Translations under genes and position numbers: made by a program | In this document: positions 9,501 to 54,451 of the stretch, one piece after another | Layout: each line of letters opens with the position of its first letter | Numbering within the stretch: the first letter of the stretch is position 1 | From: Bacteroidia bacterium | GTDB lineage: Bacteria; Bacteroidota; Bacteroidia; 2-12-FULL-35-15 | Direction of reading: 5' to 3' | DNA length: 64,000 nt | Assembly: GCA_036170475.1 (NCBI GenBank) | Contig: JAVHPE010000095.1 | Coordinates: 36,906-100,905 of the forward strand | Notes under the pieces: generated by a model | Told to the model about the DNA's origin: nothing | Databases searched by the model: none | The model's input: the letters and a program-made list of their open reading frames with translations, nothing else

Positions 9501-9947
9501 TTATACAGTTGGTGTTTCGTGAATAATAATTTTTTCAATCACATCGCCCTGGTTTATCTGGTCAATAATTGAAAGTCCTTCTACTACCTTACCAAAACAG
9601 GTATGTACTCTGTCCAAATGAGCTGTTTGTGCCCTGCTCATTACAATAAAAAATTGTGAGCCTCCTGTATCCTTACCGGCATGAGCCATTGAAAGCACAC
9701 CTCTGTCATGAAATTGGTTACCTCCTGTTAATTCGCATTTAATTTTATATCCGGGTCCACCGCCGCCATTACCATTTGGACATCCACCTTGCAGAACAAA
9801 TCCAGGAATTACACGATGAAATGTAAGTCCATTATAAAATCCTTTTTTTGCCAGGTCACAAAAATTTTTTACTGTTCCCGGAGCATCTTGTTCGTAAAAC
9901 TCCACTTTCATTGTACCTTTTGCTGTTACTATTTCCGCTGTTTTCAT
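9501..9947 (-). CDS. Peptidyl-prolyl cis-trans isomerase, cyclophilin type
   Basis: Cyclophilin motifs FHRVIPGFVLQGGCP and SMAHAGKDTGGSQFFI. The ORF extends to 10040, but the conserved start is MKTAEIVTAKGTMKVEF. Confidence 0.85.
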   Translation of the reverse strand: MKTAEIVTAKGTMKVEFYEQDAPGTVKNFCDLAKKGFYNGLTFHRVIPGFVLQGGCPNGNGGGGPGYKIKCELTGGNQFHDRGVLSMAHAGKDTGGSQFFIVMSRAQTAHLDRVHTCFGKVVEGLSIIDQINQGDVIEKIIIHETPTV

Positions 9948-10227
9948 TTTTATTGTTTTAAAAATTGTTTGGCAAAGATATACTGAAAGCAGGTAAGTTT
10001 TCATCTCTTTGCAAATAATCATTATAATACATTGTTGCATCCAAAAAATAACTTCAACTATTACGCTATTAACTTTTGAATGTTTATAACATCTGAAAAA
10101 ACACTAAAAATTCAATAAGAAATGCATCATTTTTACAATTTGTAATTATTCCCGATAACCATAGGGGGTTATCGTTAACTTATTTATTGAGGGAAAAGCA
10201 AAAAACAAGTGTTAAAATTTACAAAAG

Positions 10228-27767: not shown

Positions 27768-30700
27768 ATGAAATCAAAAACTACTTTGTTCAAAATTTTT
27801 ATTATTTGTTTTTTTGCACTTGTTTTTTCTAAAACAAATGCAAGTACTTTTACAGTGATTAATACTTTGGATGCAGGTTCCGGATCATTGCGTCAGGCAA
27901 TTACTTCCGCAGGAACTAATCCTTATGATGCTGATAATATTATATTTAATATTCCTACATCCGATCCAAATTACAATGCTTCAACGGGTGTTTTTACCAT
28001 ATCTCCTGCATCTTTACTTCCTACTGTTAATAGTATTTCTGTATCTATAGATGGTACAACACAGCCGGGAAATACAAATCCAAATGGTCCTGAAATATGC
28101 ATTAAAAGTACCGCTAATCTGTCCTATGCTTTGTGTTTCCCATTTTCCGGATGTAGTGTAAAAGGCTTGATAATAAATGGATTTCAATATGGTGTTATTC
28201 TTACAAAGTATGGTACTTTTCCAAGTGGGTCTTGTACGGTTGCAAATTGTTATATTGGAGTAAATTACGATGGTAGCGCCGCACTTTCTAATGATATTGG
28301 AATTGTACTATATGGGGATGTTGCAACTAATACAATAAAGGACAATCTTATTTCTGGAAATACTACGGCAGGTATTGGTGTTAGGAAATCAAATGGCAAT
28401 GTTATCCAAGGAAATAAAATAGGGTGTGATAGAACAGGAATGTATGCTATTCCTAATTACTACGGTGTGGCTATTGATTCATCAGCAAATAACACTGTTG
28501 GCGGAAATACAGCGTTACAACGAAATATTATTTCAGGAAATTTATCTGCCGGAGTTGCCATTAATACAAATGTTTCACATGATAATACTGTCAAAGGAAA
28601 TTATATAGGTATCAATATTAATGGTATTGCCAGAACTGATACCATTCCAAATTTCTATGGTATTGCTATCAATGATTCCTACAATAATATTATTGGGGGT
28701 GCTTCGGCAGCGGAAAGAAATATCATTTCTGGTAATAGTGATGGTGGAATTTCCATTTTAGGTCCAAACGCTAAAAACATGACTATCAAAGGAAACTACA
28801 TTGGAACAAATATTTCCGGAACTGATTCTATACCAAACGCGAATGGAATTTTATTAAGCGGAACTTCCGGAAATACCATTGGCGGAAGCAATACAGGTGA
28901 GGGTAATTTAATTTCCGGAAATAAATCAGCAGGAATCGCCTTGGCATATTCAGGAACAAGATTAAATACAATAATTGGAAATTATATCGGAACAGATTTT
29001 CAAGGGACTCAGATATTGAGTAATTATACAGGAATTTATTTAAAGAGCAATGCCAATAAAAACACCATTGGTGGTTCTACTCCGGGTGAACGGAATATTA
29101 TTTCAGGAAATATTGAAATGGCATTATGTATTGAATCGTCTGACAGTAATACGGTAAAAGGAAATTATATTGGTCCTGATGTAACAGGCATGAATGCTTT
29201 AAAATTGTCGAATGATACGCTTGTTCAAGCCAATGGCTTATATTTTAATTCAAATTCAAAATACAATACTGCCGGTGGATACGGTGCAGGAGAAGGAAAT
29301 GTAATTTCCGGAAACAGGATATATGGTCATGATTATTATGGTAACTCTTCCTATAATCCCACTATTGGGAATTATATTGGTGTGGATGCAACCGGTAATA
29401 ACCCAATGCCCAACGCAACAGGTATTTGTATGGATGGGGGTTCTAATCATAATCCTATCATTAATAATGTTCTTTCAGGTAACCGTGCTTACGGAATATT
29501 TATTGTTACCACAGGCACCGATTACAATGTCCTTAACGGAAATAAAATTGGGACTAATGCAGCAGGAACTGATTCAGTACCAAATCAAATTGGCTTAATC
29601 CTTGGGGGAGGAACAAAACACAATACTATTGGGGGAACAACGACAGCAGATAGGAATATTATTTCGGGTAACAGATTTGATGGAATTGAAGTAGCTGATA
29701 CATATACTTCTTTAAATGATATTATAGGAAATTATATCGGGACAGACATCAGCGGAACCCTTGCATTGCCTAATTATAATGGTATTGGTTTCGCAAGTAG
29801 CCCAAGTAAAAATAATATTGAAAATAATGTGATCAGTGGAAATAGCTACTGCGGACTTATTCTTTATGAACAATGCGACAGCAATACTGTTTACAGCAAT
29901 AAGATTGGTGTTTCTATGGATGGAACTACGATTTTGAAAAATAATACCGCGGGAATAGTTATTGCAAAAGGCTCGAAATATAATATAATTGGTGCTTTGA
30001 ACAAAGGGAATATTATCGCAAATCATGATTCCATTGGTATTGCTGTTATTGATACAGGAACAGTGTTCAATACAATTTCCGCAAATCAGATTTATGGTAA
30101 TGGAATAATGGGAATTGATCTTTATCCTTATGGTGTTAATAATAACGATGTTTCAGATAATGATATCGGTTCCAATGAACTGATGAATTACCCTGTGATT
30201 CAAAATGTTTACCTTGATTGGTCAAGCGGAATCGCAACCATTACCGGAACGATGGATTGTGCAACATACAGTGGTCCTGATGGAATTAAAATTGAACTCT
30301 TTAAATCCAACGGAACCAATATGTTTAATCACGGGGATGCGACTGCCTTTCTTGGAGATACAGTAGTAGTAGGTAGTTCCGGAAACTGGAGTTTTAATTG
30401 TACAGGGTTAACTTCAAGTGATATGGTAACTGCTACGGCAACTGATGTTAAAGGGAATACCTCAGAATTTGCACAGAACATAGGTATCACGGTAAGTGTG
30501 AATGAAAATAATTCCGGTAATGAATACTCTGTTTATCCTAATCCAGCAAGTGACCAATTGAAAATTTCATTTTATTCATTGTCTGAAAAGAATGTCGAGA
30601 TTAATCTTTTTTCAATTACAGGAGAACTTGTTAAGATTATTGAGAACAAAAAATTTAGCATAGGTAAAGTTGAATTGAATTATGATATTTCCGAACTTCA

Positions 30701-30782
30701 TCTTAATAAAGGTTTGTATTTCCTTGCTATTACAGAAGAAGGAAGGGCAGTCAAAACGTCTAAAATTATTATTACTAACTAA
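27768..30782 (+). CDS. Right-handed parallel beta-helix repeat protein with CSLREA-like N-terminal motif and T9SS C-terminal sorting domain
   Basis: 1004 aa with a signal peptide. N-terminal GSGSLRQAIT motif. About 20 tandem ~22-aa PbH1-like repeats (GNYIG.D..G.....N..GI). C-terminal SVYPNPASDQLKISF.. T9SS CTD. Confidence 0.8.
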   Translation: MKSKTTLFKIFIICFFALVFSKTNASTFTVINTLDAGSGSLRQAITSAGTNPYDADNIIFNIPTSDPNYNASTGVFTISPASLLPTVNSISVSIDGTTQPGNTNPNGPEICIKSTANLSYALCFPFSGCSVKGLIINGFQYGVILTKYGTFPSGSCTVANCYIGVNYDGSAALSNDIGIVLYGDVATNTIKDNLISGNTTAGIGVRKSNGNVIQGNKIGCDRTGMYAIPNYYGVAIDSSANNTVGGNTALQRNIISGNLSAGVAINTNVSHDNTVKGNYIGININGIARTDTIPNFYGIAINDSYNNIIGGASAAERNIISGNSDGGISILGPNAKNMTIKGNYIGTNISGTDSIPNANGILLSGTSGNTIGGSNTGEGNLISGNKSAGIALAYSGTRLNTIIGNYIGTDFQGTQILSNYTGIYLKSNANKNTIGGSTPGERNIISGNIEMALCIESSDSNTVKGNYIGPDVTGMNALKLSNDTLVQANGLYFNSNSKYNTAGGYGAGEGNVISGNRIYGHDYYGNSSYNPTIGNYIGVDATGNNPMPNATGICMDGGSNHNPIINNVLSGNRAYGIFIVTTGTDYNVLNGNKIGTNAAGTDSVPNQIGLILGGGTKHNTIGGTTTADRNIISGNRFDGIEVADTYTSLNDIIGNYIGTDISGTLALPNYNGIGFASSPSKNNIENNVISGNSYCGLILYEQCDSNTVYSNKIGVSMDGTTILKNNTAGIVIAKGSKYNIIGALNKGNIIANHDSIGIAVIDTGTVFNTISANQIYGNGIMGIDLYPYGVNNNDVSDNDIGSNELMNYPVIQNVYLDWSSGIATITGTMDCATYSGPDGIKIELFKSNGTNMFNHGDATAFLGDTVVVGSSGNWSFNCTGLTSSDMVTATATDVKGNTSEFAQNIGITVSVNENNSGNEYSVYPNPASDQLKISFYSLSEKNVEINLFSITGELVKIIENKKFSIGKVELNYDISELHLNKGLYFLAITEEGRAVKTSKIIITN

Positions 30783-30828
30783 TCAAATCCCGACAGGTTT
30801 TTATAATCTGTCAGGATTAAACACTATT

Positions 30829-34006: not shown

Positions 34007-34237
34007 ATGAATATTCAGGCAGAAAAATTAGAGTTGATAAAAATGCTTGTAACTATACAAGACTCAGCACTTTTGAAAAAAATCAAAAAACTTTTGGAAA
34101 AAGAGCAAAGTGATGACTTTTTTTGCAATTTGAGTAATGAGCAAATAGCTTCTATAGAGAGAGGGTTAGAGGATGTAAAAAAGGGAAAAACAATTCCACA
34201 TGAAAAAGTAAAGAAGCGTTATTCAAAATGGCTTTAG
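34007..34237 (+). CDS. Type II antitoxin (ParD/RelB-like), partner of the overlapping toxin
   Basis: 76 aa, helical. Overlaps the downstream RelE/ParE-like gene by 10 nt. Confidence 0.55.
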   Translation: MNIQAEKLELIKMLVTIQDSALLKKIKKLLEKEQSDDFFCNLSNEQIASIERGLEDVKKGKTIPHEKVKKRYSKWL

Positions 34238-34524
34238 AAATTATTTGGTCGGAGGAAGCGGATTTTAATTTAGATTCGATAATTAAATATTTGCAAAGTA
34301 ATTGGACTGAAAAAGAATTAAAGAGTTTTTCTGTAAAATTAGAAGAACAATTATCCTTAATATCAGAATTTCCATTACTTTACAAACAATCACAACGTTT
34401 ACATGGCACTCACGAATGTGTTTTGACAAAGCATAATTCATTATTTTATGTAGTTGATAAAAATTCAATTTATATCCTTTCGATTTGGGACAATCGGCAA
34501 AACCCACTAAAACTTAAAAAATAA
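34228..34524 (+). CDS. Type II toxin, RelE/ParE family
   Basis: 98 aa. ParE-like N-terminus (LEIIWSEEADFNLDSIIKYL). Size and operon context fit a TA module. Confidence 0.65.
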   Translation: MALEIIWSEEADFNLDSIIKYLQSNWTEKELKSFSVKLEEQLSLISEFPLLYKQSQRLHGTHECVLTKHNSLFYVVDKNSIYILSIWDNRQNPLKLKK

Positions 34525-36059: not shown

Positions 36060-36584
36060 TTACTCCTTCTCAGTATTTTCAAACTTCACAATATCCGCTG
36101 CAAAGTCCATAAAAAATTTATGAGCGGATGTAAACATAAAACGATTATCAGCTGTCTTTTCAATAATGTTCCTACGATTAAGCGTATTAATGAAGTTCTT
36201 GCGTGAGTCAGCATCCTTTAATTGTTTGTTTGATAAAATTAAATCAATATAGGATGAGTTAGTAAAATAATTTTCGATTTCTTCAATTTCAAATTCACTA
36301 AATTGAATGCGTTCTAAAAAATTTTTTCCATCTCGGTCAAGCTCATAGCTTAAAAGTGCAAAAAATATACAGATATCACGGGACAACATTTCATTGGATT
36401 CATCAGAAACCAGATAAACAAAATCCTGAGTGATTTTTAAATCATAGTTGAATGATGCTTTAAAAAAATAGGTGTACGATTGTTCGTTATCCTTCAGAAC
36501 TGCGTATGTACGCTCTTGTGGTAATATAAATTTACCACTCATTAAATCTTCTACAATTTGGCGATGATGATTAGGAAATTCCAT
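36060..36584 (-). CDS. Hypothetical helical protein, third gene of the SMC-like ATPase operon (size compatible with a MukE/JetB/ScpB-like partner)
   Basis: 174 aa. Overlaps the upstream gene by 14 nt. No motif recognised. Confidence 0.5.
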   Translation of the reverse strand: MEFPNHHRQIVEDLMSGKFILPQERTYAVLKDNEQSYTYFFKASFNYDLKITQDFVYLVSDESNEMLSRDICIFFALLSYELDRDGKNFLERIQFSEFEIEEIENYFTNSSYIDLILSNKQLKDADSRKNFINTLNRRNIIEKTADNRFMFTSAHKFFMDFAADIVKFENTEKE

Positions 36585-37764
36585 GTTTATTGATTGTTAT
36601 TTTAGGAACAGTTACTGTTAAATCGTTAATTTTTATTTTGTCGAATTCAGGCTTTTTACCAAAATCTCGCTCAATATCCTCATCAAAAGCCAACGTGGTA
36701 AGTGCAAAGAATTTTTCAATTTCTACTTTCTTATATTCTTCCTTTAGCGTTTTGTTACACCACTTGAAAAAATCACTTACCGGCAAATTAGATTTTAATT
36801 TATGAGTAAAAAATTCTTTATCAAAAATCCATTTTTCTTCCGTATTAATTTCTTCCTCAAAATAAACTGCAGGATCATTTTTAAATTGTTCAAAAATTTC
36901 TGAAGCGTTAAAGAAAGTATTGTTGGAATAAATATTTGTCCTCTTAGCTTCAAATAATTCAGGTACTTTTTGTTTATAAGGATTTTTCAGGAATGTTATC
37001 CAGCCAGTCAGAATAATTGATTCAGTGCGAATACGTTCTATTAGCGGCAGTAATTCATTGGTTAAAATTTTTGATTGTTTTAATAAATTATCATTCACTT
37101 GAATCAATTGAAAATAAAGTTTTTCAAATAAAACACGTGAATTTTCCTCATCGCAGTTCAAACGATATTTATTTGAAAACTCAGATATATCATATAATTT
37201 ATTAGTAATAGATGTGGTATGATTAATGTCCAGAATTTTGTTGAGTGGAATAATATATTCATCAATCCATCTTGAAGCACGGACAATCTTTTCGCGGTAA
37301 TCAATTTTCTTTACATTGGCTTTTAATTCACGCGTTTCATTCAACAAACTAATGGTATTTTTTTCTACCATCTCATAGAATGCCCTAATTTCATTGGACA
37401 ATTCAATTAAGCGTTGATTTAAAATTACTTTATCCCCTTTTATATTCTCTTTAATTTTACGAAATAATTCAGCGATTGAAACATGATATTTTTCAATTGT
37501 CTCAGGCAACATTGGCTTAAACTCACTTAAAATAAACTCAATCAGGTTATAATAAACAGTCCGTATTTCGTAATTATCATTAACCGCGCTTAATATTTTA
37601 TAGTCGATAAGCTGAGATTTAATATCACTATTGTGTTTAGAAGTAATTTGATTTAACGTTTCGAAAGTAATAACACCGGCTTTCGTTTGTGTTTCATACA
37701 ATTCATTGATAATATCAAAATACTCTAATAAAAAGCGCAGTATGGTTCTTGGTTCAGCTTTCAT
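36571..37764 (-). CDS. Hypothetical helical protein, second gene of the SMC-like ATPase operon (possible kleisin-like partner)
   Basis: 397 aa, all-helical. No motif recognised. Downstream of the ATPase after a 204-nt spacer carrying a palindromic element. Confidence 0.5.
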   Translation of the reverse strand: MKAEPRTILRFLLEYFDIINELYETQTKAGVITFETLNQITSKHNSDIKSQLIDYKILSAVNDNYEIRTVYYNLIEFILSEFKPMLPETIEKYHVSIAELFRKIKENIKGDKVILNQRLIELSNEIRAFYEMVEKNTISLLNETRELKANVKKIDYREKIVRASRWIDEYIIPLNKILDINHTTSITNKLYDISEFSNKYRLNCDEENSRVLFEKLYFQLIQVNDNLLKQSKILTNELLPLIERIRTESIILTGWITFLKNPYKQKVPELFEAKRTNIYSNNTFFNASEIFEQFKNDPAVYFEEEINTEEKWIFDKEFFTHKLKSNLPVSDFFKWCNKTLKEEYKKVEIEKFFALTTLAFDEDIERDFGKKPEFDKIKINDLTVTVPKITINKHGIS

Positions 37765-37803
37765 TTGAAAATTATTTCTTTGTTTAAAATTATAAATAAT
37801 CGT

Positions 37804-37966
37804 CTACCCTGGCAGGGTTTCAAACCCTGTAAGGGCTTATGGTCCAATATAAATTACGATTCCAATTAAATTACATAATTTTATTTTACTCCAAACAGCT
37901 TTGAATTACACTTTTATCCAAATGCCTAAACCCCTGACAGGGTTTGAAACCCTGTCAGGGGATAGT
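37804..37966. mobile_element. MITE-like element: two related perfect palindromes (core CAGGGTTTnAAACCCTG) forming ~30-bp terminal inverted repeats around an AT-rich ~95-nt core. It fills the intergenic gap inside the SMC-like operon.
   Basis: ctaccctggcagggtttcaaaccctgtaaggg ... cccctgacagggtttgaaaccctgtcagggg. Confidence 0.55.
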
Positions 37967-37968
37967 TA

Positions 37969-40656
37969 TTATTTACTTTTTATTGTTTTTGCAATTGGTT
38001 GAACAGCCCCATTTCTTTCAACGACAACAGCATTCTGTTTTTCATTGATATTTACTTTTCCATTTGATGGATAAATAAAATAATATTTATTAAACCCTTC
38101 AACTGCGTCAGGTGCAGCAAAAATAGGTAGGAAATTATGTTCCTTACAAAATTTCACTATCTCCGGACGGTTTTGTTTATCAATGGTTGCAACCTCGTCA
38201 ATAAACAACGCGATTTTATTGTGTTCATCCGCAACAGCTAAGCGATTGATAATGGACATAATCATTACCAAGCGAATCATTCGGTCGGTACCATCTGATT
38301 CAACCTGATTTGCAAGATCTACACGTTTATCGGTTCCTTTAATATGAAGTAATAATTCTATATTAAATAATTCATCAAAACTTACTTTTTTGCCACTGTC
38401 GAGGTAGGTATTTAATACTTTTAAATTTTCGGATTGGTCAAACTCAAAACTCATTTGCCCATTGAACTCCTGAATAGAGGCGATTTTTTTTAACTCGCCA
38501 ATGATGCGATCGTTATCCAACAATTCAATTTTCATTGATTCTATATTGGAGATACGCGTTTGCGAGAGTTTTTCGTTGAATTTTGTATAAACAAATTGTT
38601 TAAACTCTTCATAGCGTTTTAGCAAAGTGTAAGCAGGATTGGCAAATTGTGTTGAAATACTGGATAATAACCCATCGATGCTACGTTCTTTATCAGATAA
38701 ACAGGCTATTTCATCCTCCACAAAGTTTATAAACTGCTCAATGTCAGCGCTGTTATTGCGTAAACGATATTTTAAATTATCAAATATGGCATCTTTTTTT
38801 ACTTTTAATTCAATTCTGTCTTTTTGATGAATTGAAATTTTAGAAAAGATATAATCCAAATTATCATTTGTTTCGTATTCAGTAGGCACCAGATTAATAG
38901 CTTCCACTTCAATTTTTCGAGCTTTCAAATCTCTAACACGAACTTCCAGATTGCGTTTTTCTTCCTGCAATTTGTCAAACATAATTTGTTTTTGAGAAAT
39001 TTCTTTAACCAAGGAACTTAAAAGCTCTTCCAGTTCTTTCTTTTCCAACGTTAATGATCTAACATCATCCGTGATGGAACGAACCTGCTTTTCCAATGCA
39101 GGTTTGCTTTCAATCTGTTTCACTTTTTCTTTAATTAATTCAATTTCACTTAAAATCACTTTCAGTTTTGAATCAATTTTTTCTTTGTCAGCTACCGTTT
39201 TTAATAGCTCTTCCGTTTGTTTTTTCTCTAGCTGTAATCCTTTCAATTCATCTTTCAATTCTTTAACTGATTTGAATTCTTTCAGTGTGATTCCTTTAGT
39301 GATATCAATTTCGCCATCAAAAATCGCCAGTAGTTTTGCTGAAATTTTTTTGATTGGTTTTTTGATTTGTTTACTTGGCAAGCCTGTAACCTGTTCTGAA
39401 AGGACAGAATTAAGCAATTGCTTCACATCTTCGTTATCCGAAATTTTATGAATCAATAAATTGTTGTAATTATCAATTTGATTTTCGAGTGATGCGATTT
39501 GGTAATTTAATTTATCAATTCGCATTTCAAGTTGTTTACTTGATAATTTTTGAATCTCTATGGTAGTAAACCGTGTTTCAATGTCCTTACGATCTTTATC
39601 CAAATTGCGTAATGATTCTTTCAAGAAATCAACCGTTTCAAATTTAAGAATCTCATTCAATGCGGCTTGTTTTTCAACCAACAGATTGGTTTTGTTTTTT
39701 ATTTCGGCATTTTTTTCACCGATATAAGAAGCGTAATTTAATTCCTTAGGTTTTAATATCTCATTAATTTCGTTATGCACCGCGGCAATGTGTCTTCCTC
39801 TTTCGATAGAAGAAATTTCCAATTCAGGAATCGCGGAGGTGTAGGAATAATTAAAAGCGGAAATTAATTCACTAACGATTTTTGTTTTTGAATTATATAC
39901 TTTAACTAATTCGCGAAACTCAAGGAAATCGGTACGTACCGACTTAATACTTTTAATTTCCTCGTTAATACGCAATAAATCAGTAATATCTTTTTTGTTT
40001 TTTTGAGAGAAATTCAAACTTTCATTTTCACGATTATCAGCAATGATCAACGACTCTTTTAGCGTTTTATTTGTAATCAACTTGGAGTTGATTAAATAAC
40101 GATATACTTTTGAAAAATTATTACTCAAACCATCTGCTTTTACGGTATCTTCCAGCCATACCACAGCATTATTCTTTATTCCACGATGGTATACCAGATT
40201 AAAGACATCTGATTTAGTAGCAAATTTGCTATGTGCAATTCCTCTTTCAATAAGTTTTCCGATCACTTCATCAAAATTCAATAAGCGTTGATGTGTACCT
40301 TCGTTTTCAAAGAAATACTCTTCATCGTATTCACTGTCAATTTTATAGTATTCCAATTCGCCATCTGTATTTCTTTTCACAAGAATACAATAGTAGCCCA
40401 GCTTATTTATCTCGAATATTAAAAAACTTTTATTATGAGTAGGAAAGTAGTGATGGATAGTTTCTTTATCCCCTTTGCGTTGCCCGCTGAACGACATTTT
40501 TTGTCCGTCAACAACAAACAAAAAGTTCAAAGCATAAATCAAGGTACTTTTCCCGATGTTATTCGGTCCGACCAATTGCATTGAATCACAATTGTCTAGT
40601 TTCAATTCGGCTTTACCATAGCCTTTCGAGTTGATAAGGGAAATTCTTGTAAGCAT
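37969..40656 (-). CDS. SMC/MukB/JetC-like ABC ATPase (Rad50-type head halves separated by a long coiled coil)
   Basis: 895 aa. The N-terminal head (ISLINSKGYGK...LVGPNNIGKSTLIYALNFLF) carries a Walker A motif. About 400 aa of K/E/L-rich heptad coiled coil. The C-terminal head has Walker B (ALFIDEVATID) and a signature-like ESDGTDRM. Confidence 0.75.
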   Translation of the reverse strand: MLTRISLINSKGYGKAELKLDNCDSMQLVGPNNIGKSTLIYALNFLFVVDGQKMSFSGQRKGDKETIHHYFPTHNKSFLIFEINKLGYYCILVKRNTDGELEYYKIDSEYDEEYFFENEGTHQRLLNFDEVIGKLIERGIAHSKFATKSDVFNLVYHRGIKNNAVVWLEDTVKADGLSNNFSKVYRYLINSKLITNKTLKESLIIADNRENESLNFSQKNKKDITDLLRINEEIKSIKSVRTDFLEFRELVKVYNSKTKIVSELISAFNYSYTSAIPELEISSIERGRHIAAVHNEINEILKPKELNYASYIGEKNAEIKNKTNLLVEKQAALNEILKFETVDFLKESLRNLDKDRKDIETRFTTIEIQKLSSKQLEMRIDKLNYQIASLENQIDNYNNLLIHKISDNEDVKQLLNSVLSEQVTGLPSKQIKKPIKKISAKLLAIFDGEIDITKGITLKEFKSVKELKDELKGLQLEKKQTEELLKTVADKEKIDSKLKVILSEIELIKEKVKQIESKPALEKQVRSITDDVRSLTLEKKELEELLSSLVKEISQKQIMFDKLQEEKRNLEVRVRDLKARKIEVEAINLVPTEYETNDNLDYIFSKISIHQKDRIELKVKKDAIFDNLKYRLRNNSADIEQFINFVEDEIACLSDKERSIDGLLSSISTQFANPAYTLLKRYEEFKQFVYTKFNEKLSQTRISNIESMKIELLDNDRIIGELKKIASIQEFNGQMSFEFDQSENLKVLNTYLDSGKKVSFDELFNIELLLHIKGTDKRVDLANQVESDGTDRMIRLVMIMSIINRLAVADEHNKIALFIDEVATIDKQNRPEIVKFCKEHNFLPIFAAPDAVEGFNKYYFIYPSNGKVNINEKQNAVVVERNGAVQPIAKTIKSK

Positions 40657-53930: not shown

Positions 53931-53968
53931 AAAAAAATCCCACAATTTAAAAATTGTGGGATTTTTTT
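53931..53968. terminator. Bidirectional intrinsic terminator between the ygeW-like gene and the convergent 156-aa gene
   Basis: aaaaaaatcccacaatttaaaaattgtgggattttttt, a perfect 13-bp stem flanked by A and T runs. Confidence 0.8.
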
Positions 53969-53980
53969 AGAATAAATAAA

Positions 53981-54451
53981 CTATAAATTTCTGATCGGGT
54001 TATTGCTTTTTGGTATTTGCATTCCAACTAAAACAGCTACACATCCCCCCTTAGAAGTAGTATCTACAGGTTTTAATTCAATCACTAAGTCCTGAGATGA
54101 ATTAGAGTAAAAATTCCAAAAATCCACACTTTCACCACCGGTAGCACTATTATAAACTTCTGTATTGCTTTCATCAAGTACTCTGAAATTAACTTTCCCG
54201 ACGGATTTTTCAGAACAGATTTGTAATTTATAATACAAGCCTTTATAAAAGCTTAAATGAATTTCTGTTGGTTTCCCATCTTTAATAGTAACATTATTTA
54301 TTTGCCCATTATGGGTATAGGGTAGCAATTTTTGAATTCCTACTTTAACGATGGATCTACATTGAGCAACTCCTAAAGTATTAATTGCAAAAAATAAAAT
54401 AAATATTGCAATTACTGTTCTTATTTTTTTTAGTGATAATTTCATAACCAT
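53981..54451 (-). CDS. Secreted hypothetical protein
   Basis: 156 aa with a signal peptide. Lies 8 nt downstream of the 292-aa lipoprotein gene. Confidence 0.5.
   Translation of the reverse strand: MVMKLSLKKIRTVIAIFILFFAINTLGVAQCRSIVKVGIQKLLPYTHNGQINNVTIKDGKPTEIHLSFYKGLYYKLQICSEKSVGKVNFRVLDESNTEVYNSATGGESVDFWNFYSNSSQDLVIELKPVDTTSKGGCVAVLVGMQIPKSNNPIRNL

Follow-up and report, generated by a model that had tools for sequence, protein, structure and literature searches.

What are two palindromes doing between the first two genes of a condensin-like operon? We analysed a 64,000-nt stretch of a Bacteroidia bacterium genome (GenBank assembly GCA_036170475.1, contig JAVHPE010000095.1, positions 36,906 to 100,905), hereafter the window, in which a three-gene block on the minus strand is interrupted by one 204-nt gap containing two inverted palindromes. 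A preliminary description of this DNA offered two readings: a miniature inverted-repeat element that has split the operon, or a terminator/attenuator plus operator pair controlling read-through from gene 1, an ATPase gene, into genes 2-3. Our analysis bears out the first reading in substance, though not as a classical element of that type, and does not support the second. The element is probably a doublet of repetitive extragenic palindromes (REPs), similar to a bacterial interspersed mosaic element (BIME) or a REP doublet forming hairpin (REPIN), of a family associated with a REP-associated tyrosine transposase (RAYT), and inserted in the window's lineage.

Structure of the palindrome doublet

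The intergenic segment is composed of two palindromes, a spacer and two short flanks (window coordinates):

37765..37968, minus strand: whole intergenic segment, 204 nt (7 nt + REP A + spacer + REP B + 42 nt)
37931..37961, minus strand: REP A, perfect 15+1+15 palindrome, CCCCTGACAGGGTTTgAAACCCTGTCAGGGG; mRNA strand CCCCTGACAGGGTTTcAAACCCTGTCAGGGG
37836..37930, no strand: spacer between REP A and REP B, 95 nt, 25% GC
37807..37835, minus strand: REP B, degenerate copy in inverted orientation, CCCTGGCAGGGTTTcAAACCCTGTAAGGG; mRNA strand CCCTTACAGGGTTTgAAACCCTGCCAGGG

The preliminary description took both palindromes to be perfect. This holds for REP A, the 31-mer of which is CCCCTGACAGGGTTTCAAACCCTGTCAGGGG, but not for REP B, in which the 17-nt core CAGGGTTTnAAACCCTG is perfect and shared with REP A, while 2 of the 14 arm positions, located in the outer stem, are unpaired (86% complementary). 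REP A and REP B are inverted copies of each other, with 32-nt arms that are 91% complementary and have 90 nt between them, and the central base is C in one copy and G in the other. In the mRNA sense, REP A begins 7 nt past the TAA of the ATPase gene and REP B ends 42 nt ahead of the ATG of the gene for a 397-aa protein, so that the placing first described is right and its distances (6 and 40 nt) need slight correction. The shared core, the inverted arrangement, the AT-rich segment of about 95 nt and the position in the only gap of the operon block all agree with what had been described.

As single-stranded DNA, REP A is predicted to fold with -17.2 kcal/mol (z = -8.2 against shuffles) and REP B with -9.5 kcal/mol (z = -3.5 against shuffles). 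In a 216-nt RNA of mRNA sense, the minimum-free-energy fold pairs REP A with REP B in one long hairpin of -71.8 kcal/mol (z = -7.7). The two palindromes, at 29-31 nt, are within the 20-40 nt of the short hairpin-forming palindromes called REPs, and inverted REPs that surround a short spacer and fold into one long hairpin have the geometry of a REPIN. The core is expected 0.22 times in the window with at most 3 mismatches and was found twice, both times exactly; at this tolerance the window holds no further copies beyond the doublet.

The spacer contains short mechanical open reading frames (ORFs) only and no ORF of note, and a blastn search of the spacer and right flank against the window and all loci collected (cited here by their L numbers) gave nothing above noise. 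An Rfam search of positions 37500-38300 with E up to 10 gave a best score of 28 bits against a threshold of 80, all matches having E > 0.05. Elsewhere in the window, a degenerate sister palindrome, CCCGACAGGTTTTTATAATCTGTCAGG, is located at 30789-30815, 7 nt past the stop of a 1004-aa gene (27768-30782). A related form, (A/T)CCTGACAGGTTTTnAAAACCTGTCAGG(T/A), lies 37 nt after mksE in L143-L145 (11742-11770) and also clusters near the RAYT genes of L088 and L098.

The palindrome belongs to a dispersed, extragenic family

The motif recurs in other genomes. One scan of reference genomes (one per species, 596 Gb) with the pattern CAGGGTTTNAAACCCTGNNAGGG returned at least 118 stretches, where chance alone would give about 1 (596 Gb x 2 strands / 4^20). 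The family consensus is CCCTnnCAGGGTTTnAAACCCTGnnAGGG, which REP A fits; for genome scanning with about 4 mismatches allowed, the palindrome can be written as CCCTNNCAGGGTTTNAAACCCTGNNAGGG. Among the matches listed, carriers are mostly Bacteroidota, plus Candidatus Brocadia and Moduliflexus. Specifically, they include Flavobacterium, Polaribacter and Salinimicrobium, many Bacteroidales, Prolixibacteraceae, Marinifilaceae and Lentimicrobiaceae, at least seven independent Candidatus Brocadia/Brocadiaceae assemblies, Moduliflexus, and one Balneolaceae metagenome-assembled genome (MAG). Copies per genome, again among the matches listed, reach at least eight stretches in Barb4, at least four in one other genome and at least three in several.

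The sequences indicate that the hairpin itself is maintained. The left arm CCCT, which is outside the search pattern, is still present in 94-98% of 126 distinct sequences from the matches listed. In the same 126 sequences, the stem pairs 5-35, 10-30 and 11-29 are Watson-Crick in 80%, 82% and 98% of cases, compared with 39%, 39% and 47% in shuffles, and three or four of the four Watson-Crick pair types are seen at each variable stem pair. At the level of sequence, this demonstrates a hairpin kept by compensatory changes, as would be the case for a selected hairpin. Furthermore, a two-base 'nn' signature of the stem is lineage-specific, being GT/AC in Brocadia, TT/AA, CG/CG, AT/AT or CT/AG in Flavobacteriaceae, and GA/TC or AA/TT in Bacteroidales and the window's relatives. 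Pair 10-30 departs from Watson-Crick pairing as G-T in 12 sequences and as A-C in 9, which represent one asymmetric variant read on either strand; inverted doublets, including that of the window, hold one G-T and one A-C copy each.

The family is extragenic, as REPs are. Of 111 full palindromes, 4 fall within ORFs of 150 aa or more, against 76% of random positions, and 47 of 105 copies are located within 30 nt of a gene's 3' end. The neighbours, judged by reading sequences, are unrelated housekeeping genes (aroA-, queE-, bshC- and hisC-like genes, histidine kinases and transporters). Both copies in the window are intergenic. In other genomes the palindrome mostly occurs singly.

Several individual loci deserve description in their own right. 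The Candidatus Brocadia/Brocadiaceae loci (L037, L061, L063, L068, L076, L079, L091, L113 and L121) mostly carry the GT/AC signature, and the same palindrome occurs in the Moduliflexus loci L024, L025, L100 and L128. In L117 (3040-3290), copies of the palindrome alternate in orientation and repeat in tandem about every 62 nt; L035 (970-1103) contains tandem 111-nt units that include the palindrome; and copies in L028 (120-394), L107 (7204) and L047 (2358-2976) share about 15-25 nt of flank on each side. Viral contigs gave 14 single core matches, approximately the chance level, and L023 (1888-1904; IMGVR_UViG_3300048579_000438), which is classed as viral, holds a near-identical full palindrome, CCCCCGACAGGGTTTCAAACCCTGTCAGGGG, one base off REP A.

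Two further classes of repeat were considered and rejected. GTTAGGG and CCCTAAC look like the core sites of integron attC, but they lie towards the inside of the pair, and the individual units are too short. A CRISPR reading is rejected because of the spacing and the alternating orientation of the copies. The literature searched held nothing relevant on the sequence itself. The exact REP B variant had 0 matches in JGI metagenomes, the source strain being apparently outside that collection.

The palindrome is linked to a RAYT-like transposase

All-against-all clustering of 1,210 ORFs from the palindrome loci revealed only one protein family common to more than five loci. Its members are about 200 aa long, are encoded at a median of 52 nt from the palindrome, and were found by tblastn in 13 of 118 loci, among the matches listed. 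The protein carries the motifs NHFH and YIHNNP, which are of the HUH/Y1 type. NCBIfam model NF047646 (REP-associated tyrosine transposase) matched all 10 aligned members, with a best E of 2.5e-18, and a search of the PDB with the family profile returned E. coli TnpA_REP (4ER8, E = 4e-6) as its sole match.

The arrangement of genes and palindromes is that of a REPtron. In at least eight loci (L026, L027, L030, L040, L066, L067, L075 and L088), all in other genomes, the RAYT-like gene is bracketed on both sides, at about 10-150 nt, by the same palindromes, which carry the host genome's own signature. In addition, copies of the palindrome sit in frame within the RAYT-like gene (L026:4687-5292, L067:5532-6149, L088:4580-5188 and L098:2091-2729), where they are translated to ...LTGFENLSG... 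or ...PDRVLNPVR.... In L026, L024 and L076, palindromes also provide the last codons of neighbouring ORFs. In the 8-kb stretches of the Brocadia/Brocadiaceae (Planctomycetota) and Moduliflexus MAG loci named above, no RAYT-like gene of this family (alignment A4) was detected.

Two subclasses of TnpA_Y1 are relevant here. Subclass 2.4 has the motifs NH[IFV]H and YIxNNP in a protein of about 194 aa, is spread over Cyanobacteria, Bacteroidetes and scattered phyla, and shows in-frame insertion of a REP in tnpA_REP, a trait reported to be unique to it (Quentin et al. 2018, PMC6006769). Subclass 2.6 occurs in Bacteroidetes with 'atypical secondary structures' and the motifs NH[LIV]H and YIH[QN]NP, and REP structures without a guide tetranucleotide are recognised for subclass 2.6 and class 3 (PMC6006769). 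Judged by sequence, the RAYT-like protein resembles subclass 2.4 or 2.6, and we assign it to neither. We class the palindromes as an atypical family of REPs associated with a divergent RAYT, atypical because the 5' GT[AG]G foot is lacking.

A related enzyme could also point to a miniature derivative of IS200/IS605, or palindrome-associated transposable element (PATE), the two hairpins being the left and right ends of an element that lost tnpA and tnpB. The Y1 HUH chemistry, subterminal hairpins that are recognised as single-stranded DNA, and the lack of a target-site duplication would all fit. However, no recurrent TnpA_IS200- or TnpB-like neighbour is present among the 118 loci listed, the linked enzyme matches the RAYT model, and the layout, in which palindromes that are also scattered on their own surround the gene, is REPtron-like. 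Furthermore, the hairpins here are inverted, whereas IS200/IS605 ends are co-oriented on one strand. We give this origin very little credence.

The doublet is absent from the same junction in relatives

The junction between the ATPase gene and the 397-aa gene was resolved in 19 of 20 close orthologous loci, with gaps of 3, 4, 13, 19, 20, 38, 106, 107, 109, 330 and 384 nt, and this REP is present at none of the 19. In five loci (L143-L147), in which the 397-aa orthologue is about 91% identical, only 3 nt separate the ATPase stop from the ATG (TAA GAG ATG, in ...AAAAAGTAAATAA GAG ATGAAGGC...), while the same junction of the window measures 204 nt. By this comparison the window's doublet is specific to its own lineage. 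One relative at 91% identity in the 397-aa protein (L033 and L145, apparently the same contig under two accessions, both 133,342 nt) has a doublet about 20 kb from its operon.

Other small palindromic elements are located at the same junction in other relatives. The two operons most similar to the window's, those of L142 and L148 (94% and 92% identity of the 397-aa protein), hold a different doublet of CCTCCCCgaaGGGGAGG type, at 9866-10021 and in the gap before 3283, respectively. Its inverted arms of 26 nt are, as in the window, 90 nt apart, and in L142 the first of the copies runs into the 3' end of the ATPase gene, whose product (899 aa) has an altered C-terminus. In L151 (9671-10000), a 330-nt insert contains a long GTCATTGCGAGGAACGAAGCAATC palindrome built on CGTCATTGCGAGGAACGAAGCAATC ... 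GATTGCTTCGTTCCTCGCAATGACG, and L155/L161 (109 nt) and L159 (107 nt) have further unrelated hairpin-rich inserts. The junction thus seems to be a recurrent landing place that tolerates small palindromic elements.

The preliminary description had raised the matter of a target-site duplication, and there is none: 70% of shuffles reach or exceed the similarity seen between the flanks AAAAAGTAAATAAT and AAACAAAGAAATAAT. This lack fits Y1-type chemistry and counts against a DDE-type miniature inverted-repeat transposable element (MITE). A classical MITE, a deletion derivative of a DDE transposon with terminal inverted repeats and a target-site duplication, would account for the complementary 32-nt arms around an AT-rich core, for the empty site in relatives, and for a repeated unit that extends past the palindrome in some genomes (L028/L107, L047 and L035). 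However, the interior is unique, each arm pairs with itself as a hairpin and is usually found singly, and the only recurrently linked gene among the matches listed encodes an HUH/Y1 RAYT and no DDE transposase, which makes a classical MITE quite improbable. What survives of the earlier proposal is that a segment missing from the 3-nt junction of relatives, with palindromes of a dispersed multi-genome family, has split the operon; what does not survive is its assignment to the classical type.

Doublets and copy number in the source population

L033, L051, L062 and L086 also contain inverted pairs, spaced by about 100-125 nt and showing the asymmetry of the window's doublet. At the orthologous bshC-queE junction, two MAG species have a doublet and a third has a single copy, a pattern that resembles the vertical persistence described for REPINs. 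The window's spacer is not alignable with the spacers of other doublets. Either REP pairs move the intervening DNA, or the two copies and the spacer came separately, and our data do not decide between the two.

Nine Logan contigs (L001-L009, from 9 samples, SRR25490526-548) that encode the identical ATPase or 397-aa protein all end inside the 31-nt palindrome; all six contigs on the downstream side begin at one and the same base, and the end points of the three on the upstream side differ by no more than 4 nt. An odd-centred palindrome alone would make no branch at k = 31, so the breaks are more likely due to a k-mer shared with other contexts, hinting at more copies in the source population. 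The 64 kb of the source genome covered here contain one doublet and one degenerate sister copy.

The contigs also bear on whether the inverted repeats are recombination sites at which an invertase flips the 95-nt core. Bacteroidota invertons are built in this way, with inverted repeats on both sides of a short AT-rich stretch, and the central base, C versus G, makes the two copies true inverted repeats. However, all six Logan contigs that span the core have it in the window's orientation, the core contains no Bacteroidetes promoter motif, neither of the flanking operon genes encodes a recombinase by Pfam, and the palindrome is mostly single elsewhere. An inverton is barely plausible at this site.

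Proposed mechanism and local effects

By analogy with E. coli TnpA_REP and IS200/IS605, a REP in single-stranded DNA, such as the lagging-strand template, would form a hairpin that a RAYT encoded elsewhere in the genome would recognise and cut. By the same analogy, the two inverted REPs and the DNA between them may have been moved or copied into a 3-nt gap between stop and start.

No T-run follows the hairpins on the operon strand, where the tails are TTTAGGCATT and TAGACGATTA, and a terminator scan flags a hairpin on the antisense strand only. The Bacteroidetes promoter motif TTG-N17-21-TAnnTTTG is absent from the element, with only a relaxed match abutting the ATG, and a sigma-70 promoter scan gave background level, for a consensus that is not relevant to the phylum. 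Because the element contains neither a T-tract terminator nor a new promoter, transcription would still read through. The tight coupling of gene 1 to genes 2-3 through an ancestral 3-nt gap would be lost, and the hairpin 7 nt past the stop may, as described for E. coli REPs, shield the upstream mRNA from 3' exonucleases or disturb translation termination. The ratio of the ATPase to its partner subunits would shift as a result.

The same data bear on the other reading of the preliminary description, a locus-specific device in which a terminator or attenuator (the first hairpin) and an operator bound by a dimeric DNA-binding protein (the second) would together govern read-through into genes 2-3. 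The placing, just after a stop and shortly before a start, is suggestive, the hairpins are strong, and palindromes are typical in shape for operators. However, none of the 19 orthologous junctions that could be resolved contains the element, five of them being just 3 nt long, and the identical motif stands beside unrelated genes in several phyla. Operator half-sites need no covariation of stem pairs, whereas covariation keeps the pairing here, and the operon strand has no T-tract, the terminator-like call being antisense only, and no promoter motif. We therefore abandon the terminator-operator pair as highly improbable; incidental effects of the hairpins on read-through or mRNA stability are possible. 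Most likely, the REP doublet is a tolerated selfish or neutral insertion and not an evolved regulator.

In E. coli, REPs in operon gaps, such as that of malE-malF, act as mRNA stabilisers and translation modulators, and reduce translation if they lie within about 15 nt of the stop. When located just after a stop, E. coli REPs protect the mRNA on their 5' side and can lower translation of the gene that precedes them (literature cited in PMC6006769, refs 27-30). The window's element is alike in presenting a stable hairpin right after a stop inside a polycistronic unit. RNA decay and termination in Bacteroidota are different, and an effect of this kind here is drawn from analogy.

A bolder proposal is that any two inverted REPs may mobilise the DNA between them, as 'composite' transposition with arbitrary cargo, and that the insertion was kept since it uncouples the MksB-like ATPase from its kleisin-like and MksE partners. 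We consider this combination unlikely. If true, composite movement of REPs would explain both the differing spacers and how a 3-nt gap gained two REPs and 95 nt of unrelated AT-rich DNA, apparently in one event.

Comparison with known systems

The family is closest to the REP/BIME/REPIN and RAYT systems of subclasses 2.4 and 2.6 (PMC6006769). In both, short extragenic palindromes are dispersed in multiple copies, often as inverted doublets, and flank an HUH/Y1 gene. In addition, the stem variant is lineage-specific, the spread across phyla is patchy as in subclass 2.4, and NHFH and YIHNNP fit the motifs of both subclasses.

Several observations weigh against a RAYT-associated REP doublet. Neither GTAG nor GTGG, the 5' GT[AG]G guide tetranucleotide, is present at the hairpin foot, and the flanks are mostly A/T-rich (..TAA/CCCT ... 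AGGG/TTA.., the slash marking the palindrome's edge); canonical REPs of subclass 2.4 have the tetranucleotide, while those of 2.6 have 'atypical structures'. The NF047646 scores are below the curated equivalog cut-off (the member shown reaches 56 bits, with 80 required), alignment A4 of the RAYT-like proteins shows no evident W(Q) motif, and tblastn detected no RAYT gene in the 64-kb window. There are no copies with at most 3 substitutions in 540 kb around the operons of close and more distant relatives, and the copy number in the window's lineage looks low, unlike that of REP/RAYT systems. Different doublets have unrelated spacers, even when both come from one genome (L051 versus L062), which sets the family apart from Pseudomonas REPINs; because the spacers differ, replication of the doublet as a conserved unit, the classical REPIN trait, is not shown. 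Finally, the pre-insertion state of the junction is uncertain, its gap varying among relatives, and we infer every local effect on the operon by analogy.

Other families of small palindromic repeats share single traits with the REP family described here. Rickettsia palindromic elements and Neisseria Correia elements occur between and within genes, sometimes in frame, as do the in-frame copies in the RAYT-like ORFs and, for a different repeat family, the copy at the 3' end of the L142 ATPase gene. These families have defined full-length units, with TA target duplications in the case of Correia elements, whereas only a hairpin of about 29 nt is conserved here.

The operon and neighbouring genes

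The three genes of the block are:

37969..40656, minus strand: gene 1, P-loop ATPase, 895 aa, with weak AAA_29 and AAA_21 matches at the N-terminus
36571..37764, minus strand: gene 2, 397-aa protein, with no family match in our own Pfam search
36060..36584, minus strand: gene 3, MksE, 174 aa (PF21980, E = 3.8e-21)

Genes 2 and 3 overlap by 14 nt, so the 204 nt between genes 1 and 2 are the sole gap of the block. By its gene position, the 895-aa ATPase is an MksB/JetC-like partner. The 397-aa protein, which has hundreds of close homologues among uncultured Bacteroidota, is by size and position a suitable candidate for an MksF/JetA-like (kleisin) subunit. Pfam gave no usable family for this protein or for P0052 with a local library that lacks PF28010, and some homologues of the 397-aa protein have a precomputed PF28010 match. 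PADLOC gave only weak generic ATPase matches on the operon proteins.

Two other features of the window are of note. Between yceG-like and phosphoglucomutase-like genes, a pair of small genes at 34007-34524 encodes 76 aa and 98 aa; since the record of the identical Logan contig L001 names the 98-aa product a ParE toxin (PF05016), the pair probably forms a toxin-antitoxin module. At 53931-53968, just 3' of a gene ending at 53981, there is a perfect hairpin whose 18-nt arms are AAAAAAATCCCACAATTT/AAATTGTGGGATTTTTTT, with A- and T-runs on either side. It looks like a bidirectional intrinsic terminator and would be an example of a canonical terminator in the source genome.

Significance

To our knowledge, REP/RAYT systems have been studied almost wholly in Proteobacteria. 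What appeared to be an operon-internal control element is recast here as belonging to a class of selfish or domesticated DNA, and annotators of Bacteroidota MAGs could mask or label CCCTnnCAGGGTTTnAAACCCTGnnAGGG rather than call it a terminator, an operator or a small RNA. The perfect palindrome reproducibly breaks short-read assemblies, which is of practical concern for the contiguity of MAGs.

A near-identical core across Flavobacteriia, Bacteroidia, Candidatus Brocadia and Moduliflexus, combined with the two-base signature and the in-frame copies, makes the family a compact system in which to study how a RAYT recognises its hairpin. The pair of filled and empty sites, at about 91% identity of the 397-aa protein, is a natural case for the effect of a REP doublet on a tightly coupled operon. 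The element adds a new family member to the known REP/RAYT kind, distinguished by a cross-phylum hairpin, its stem signature, copies in frame within the transposase gene, and a filled/empty pair in a condensin-like operon.

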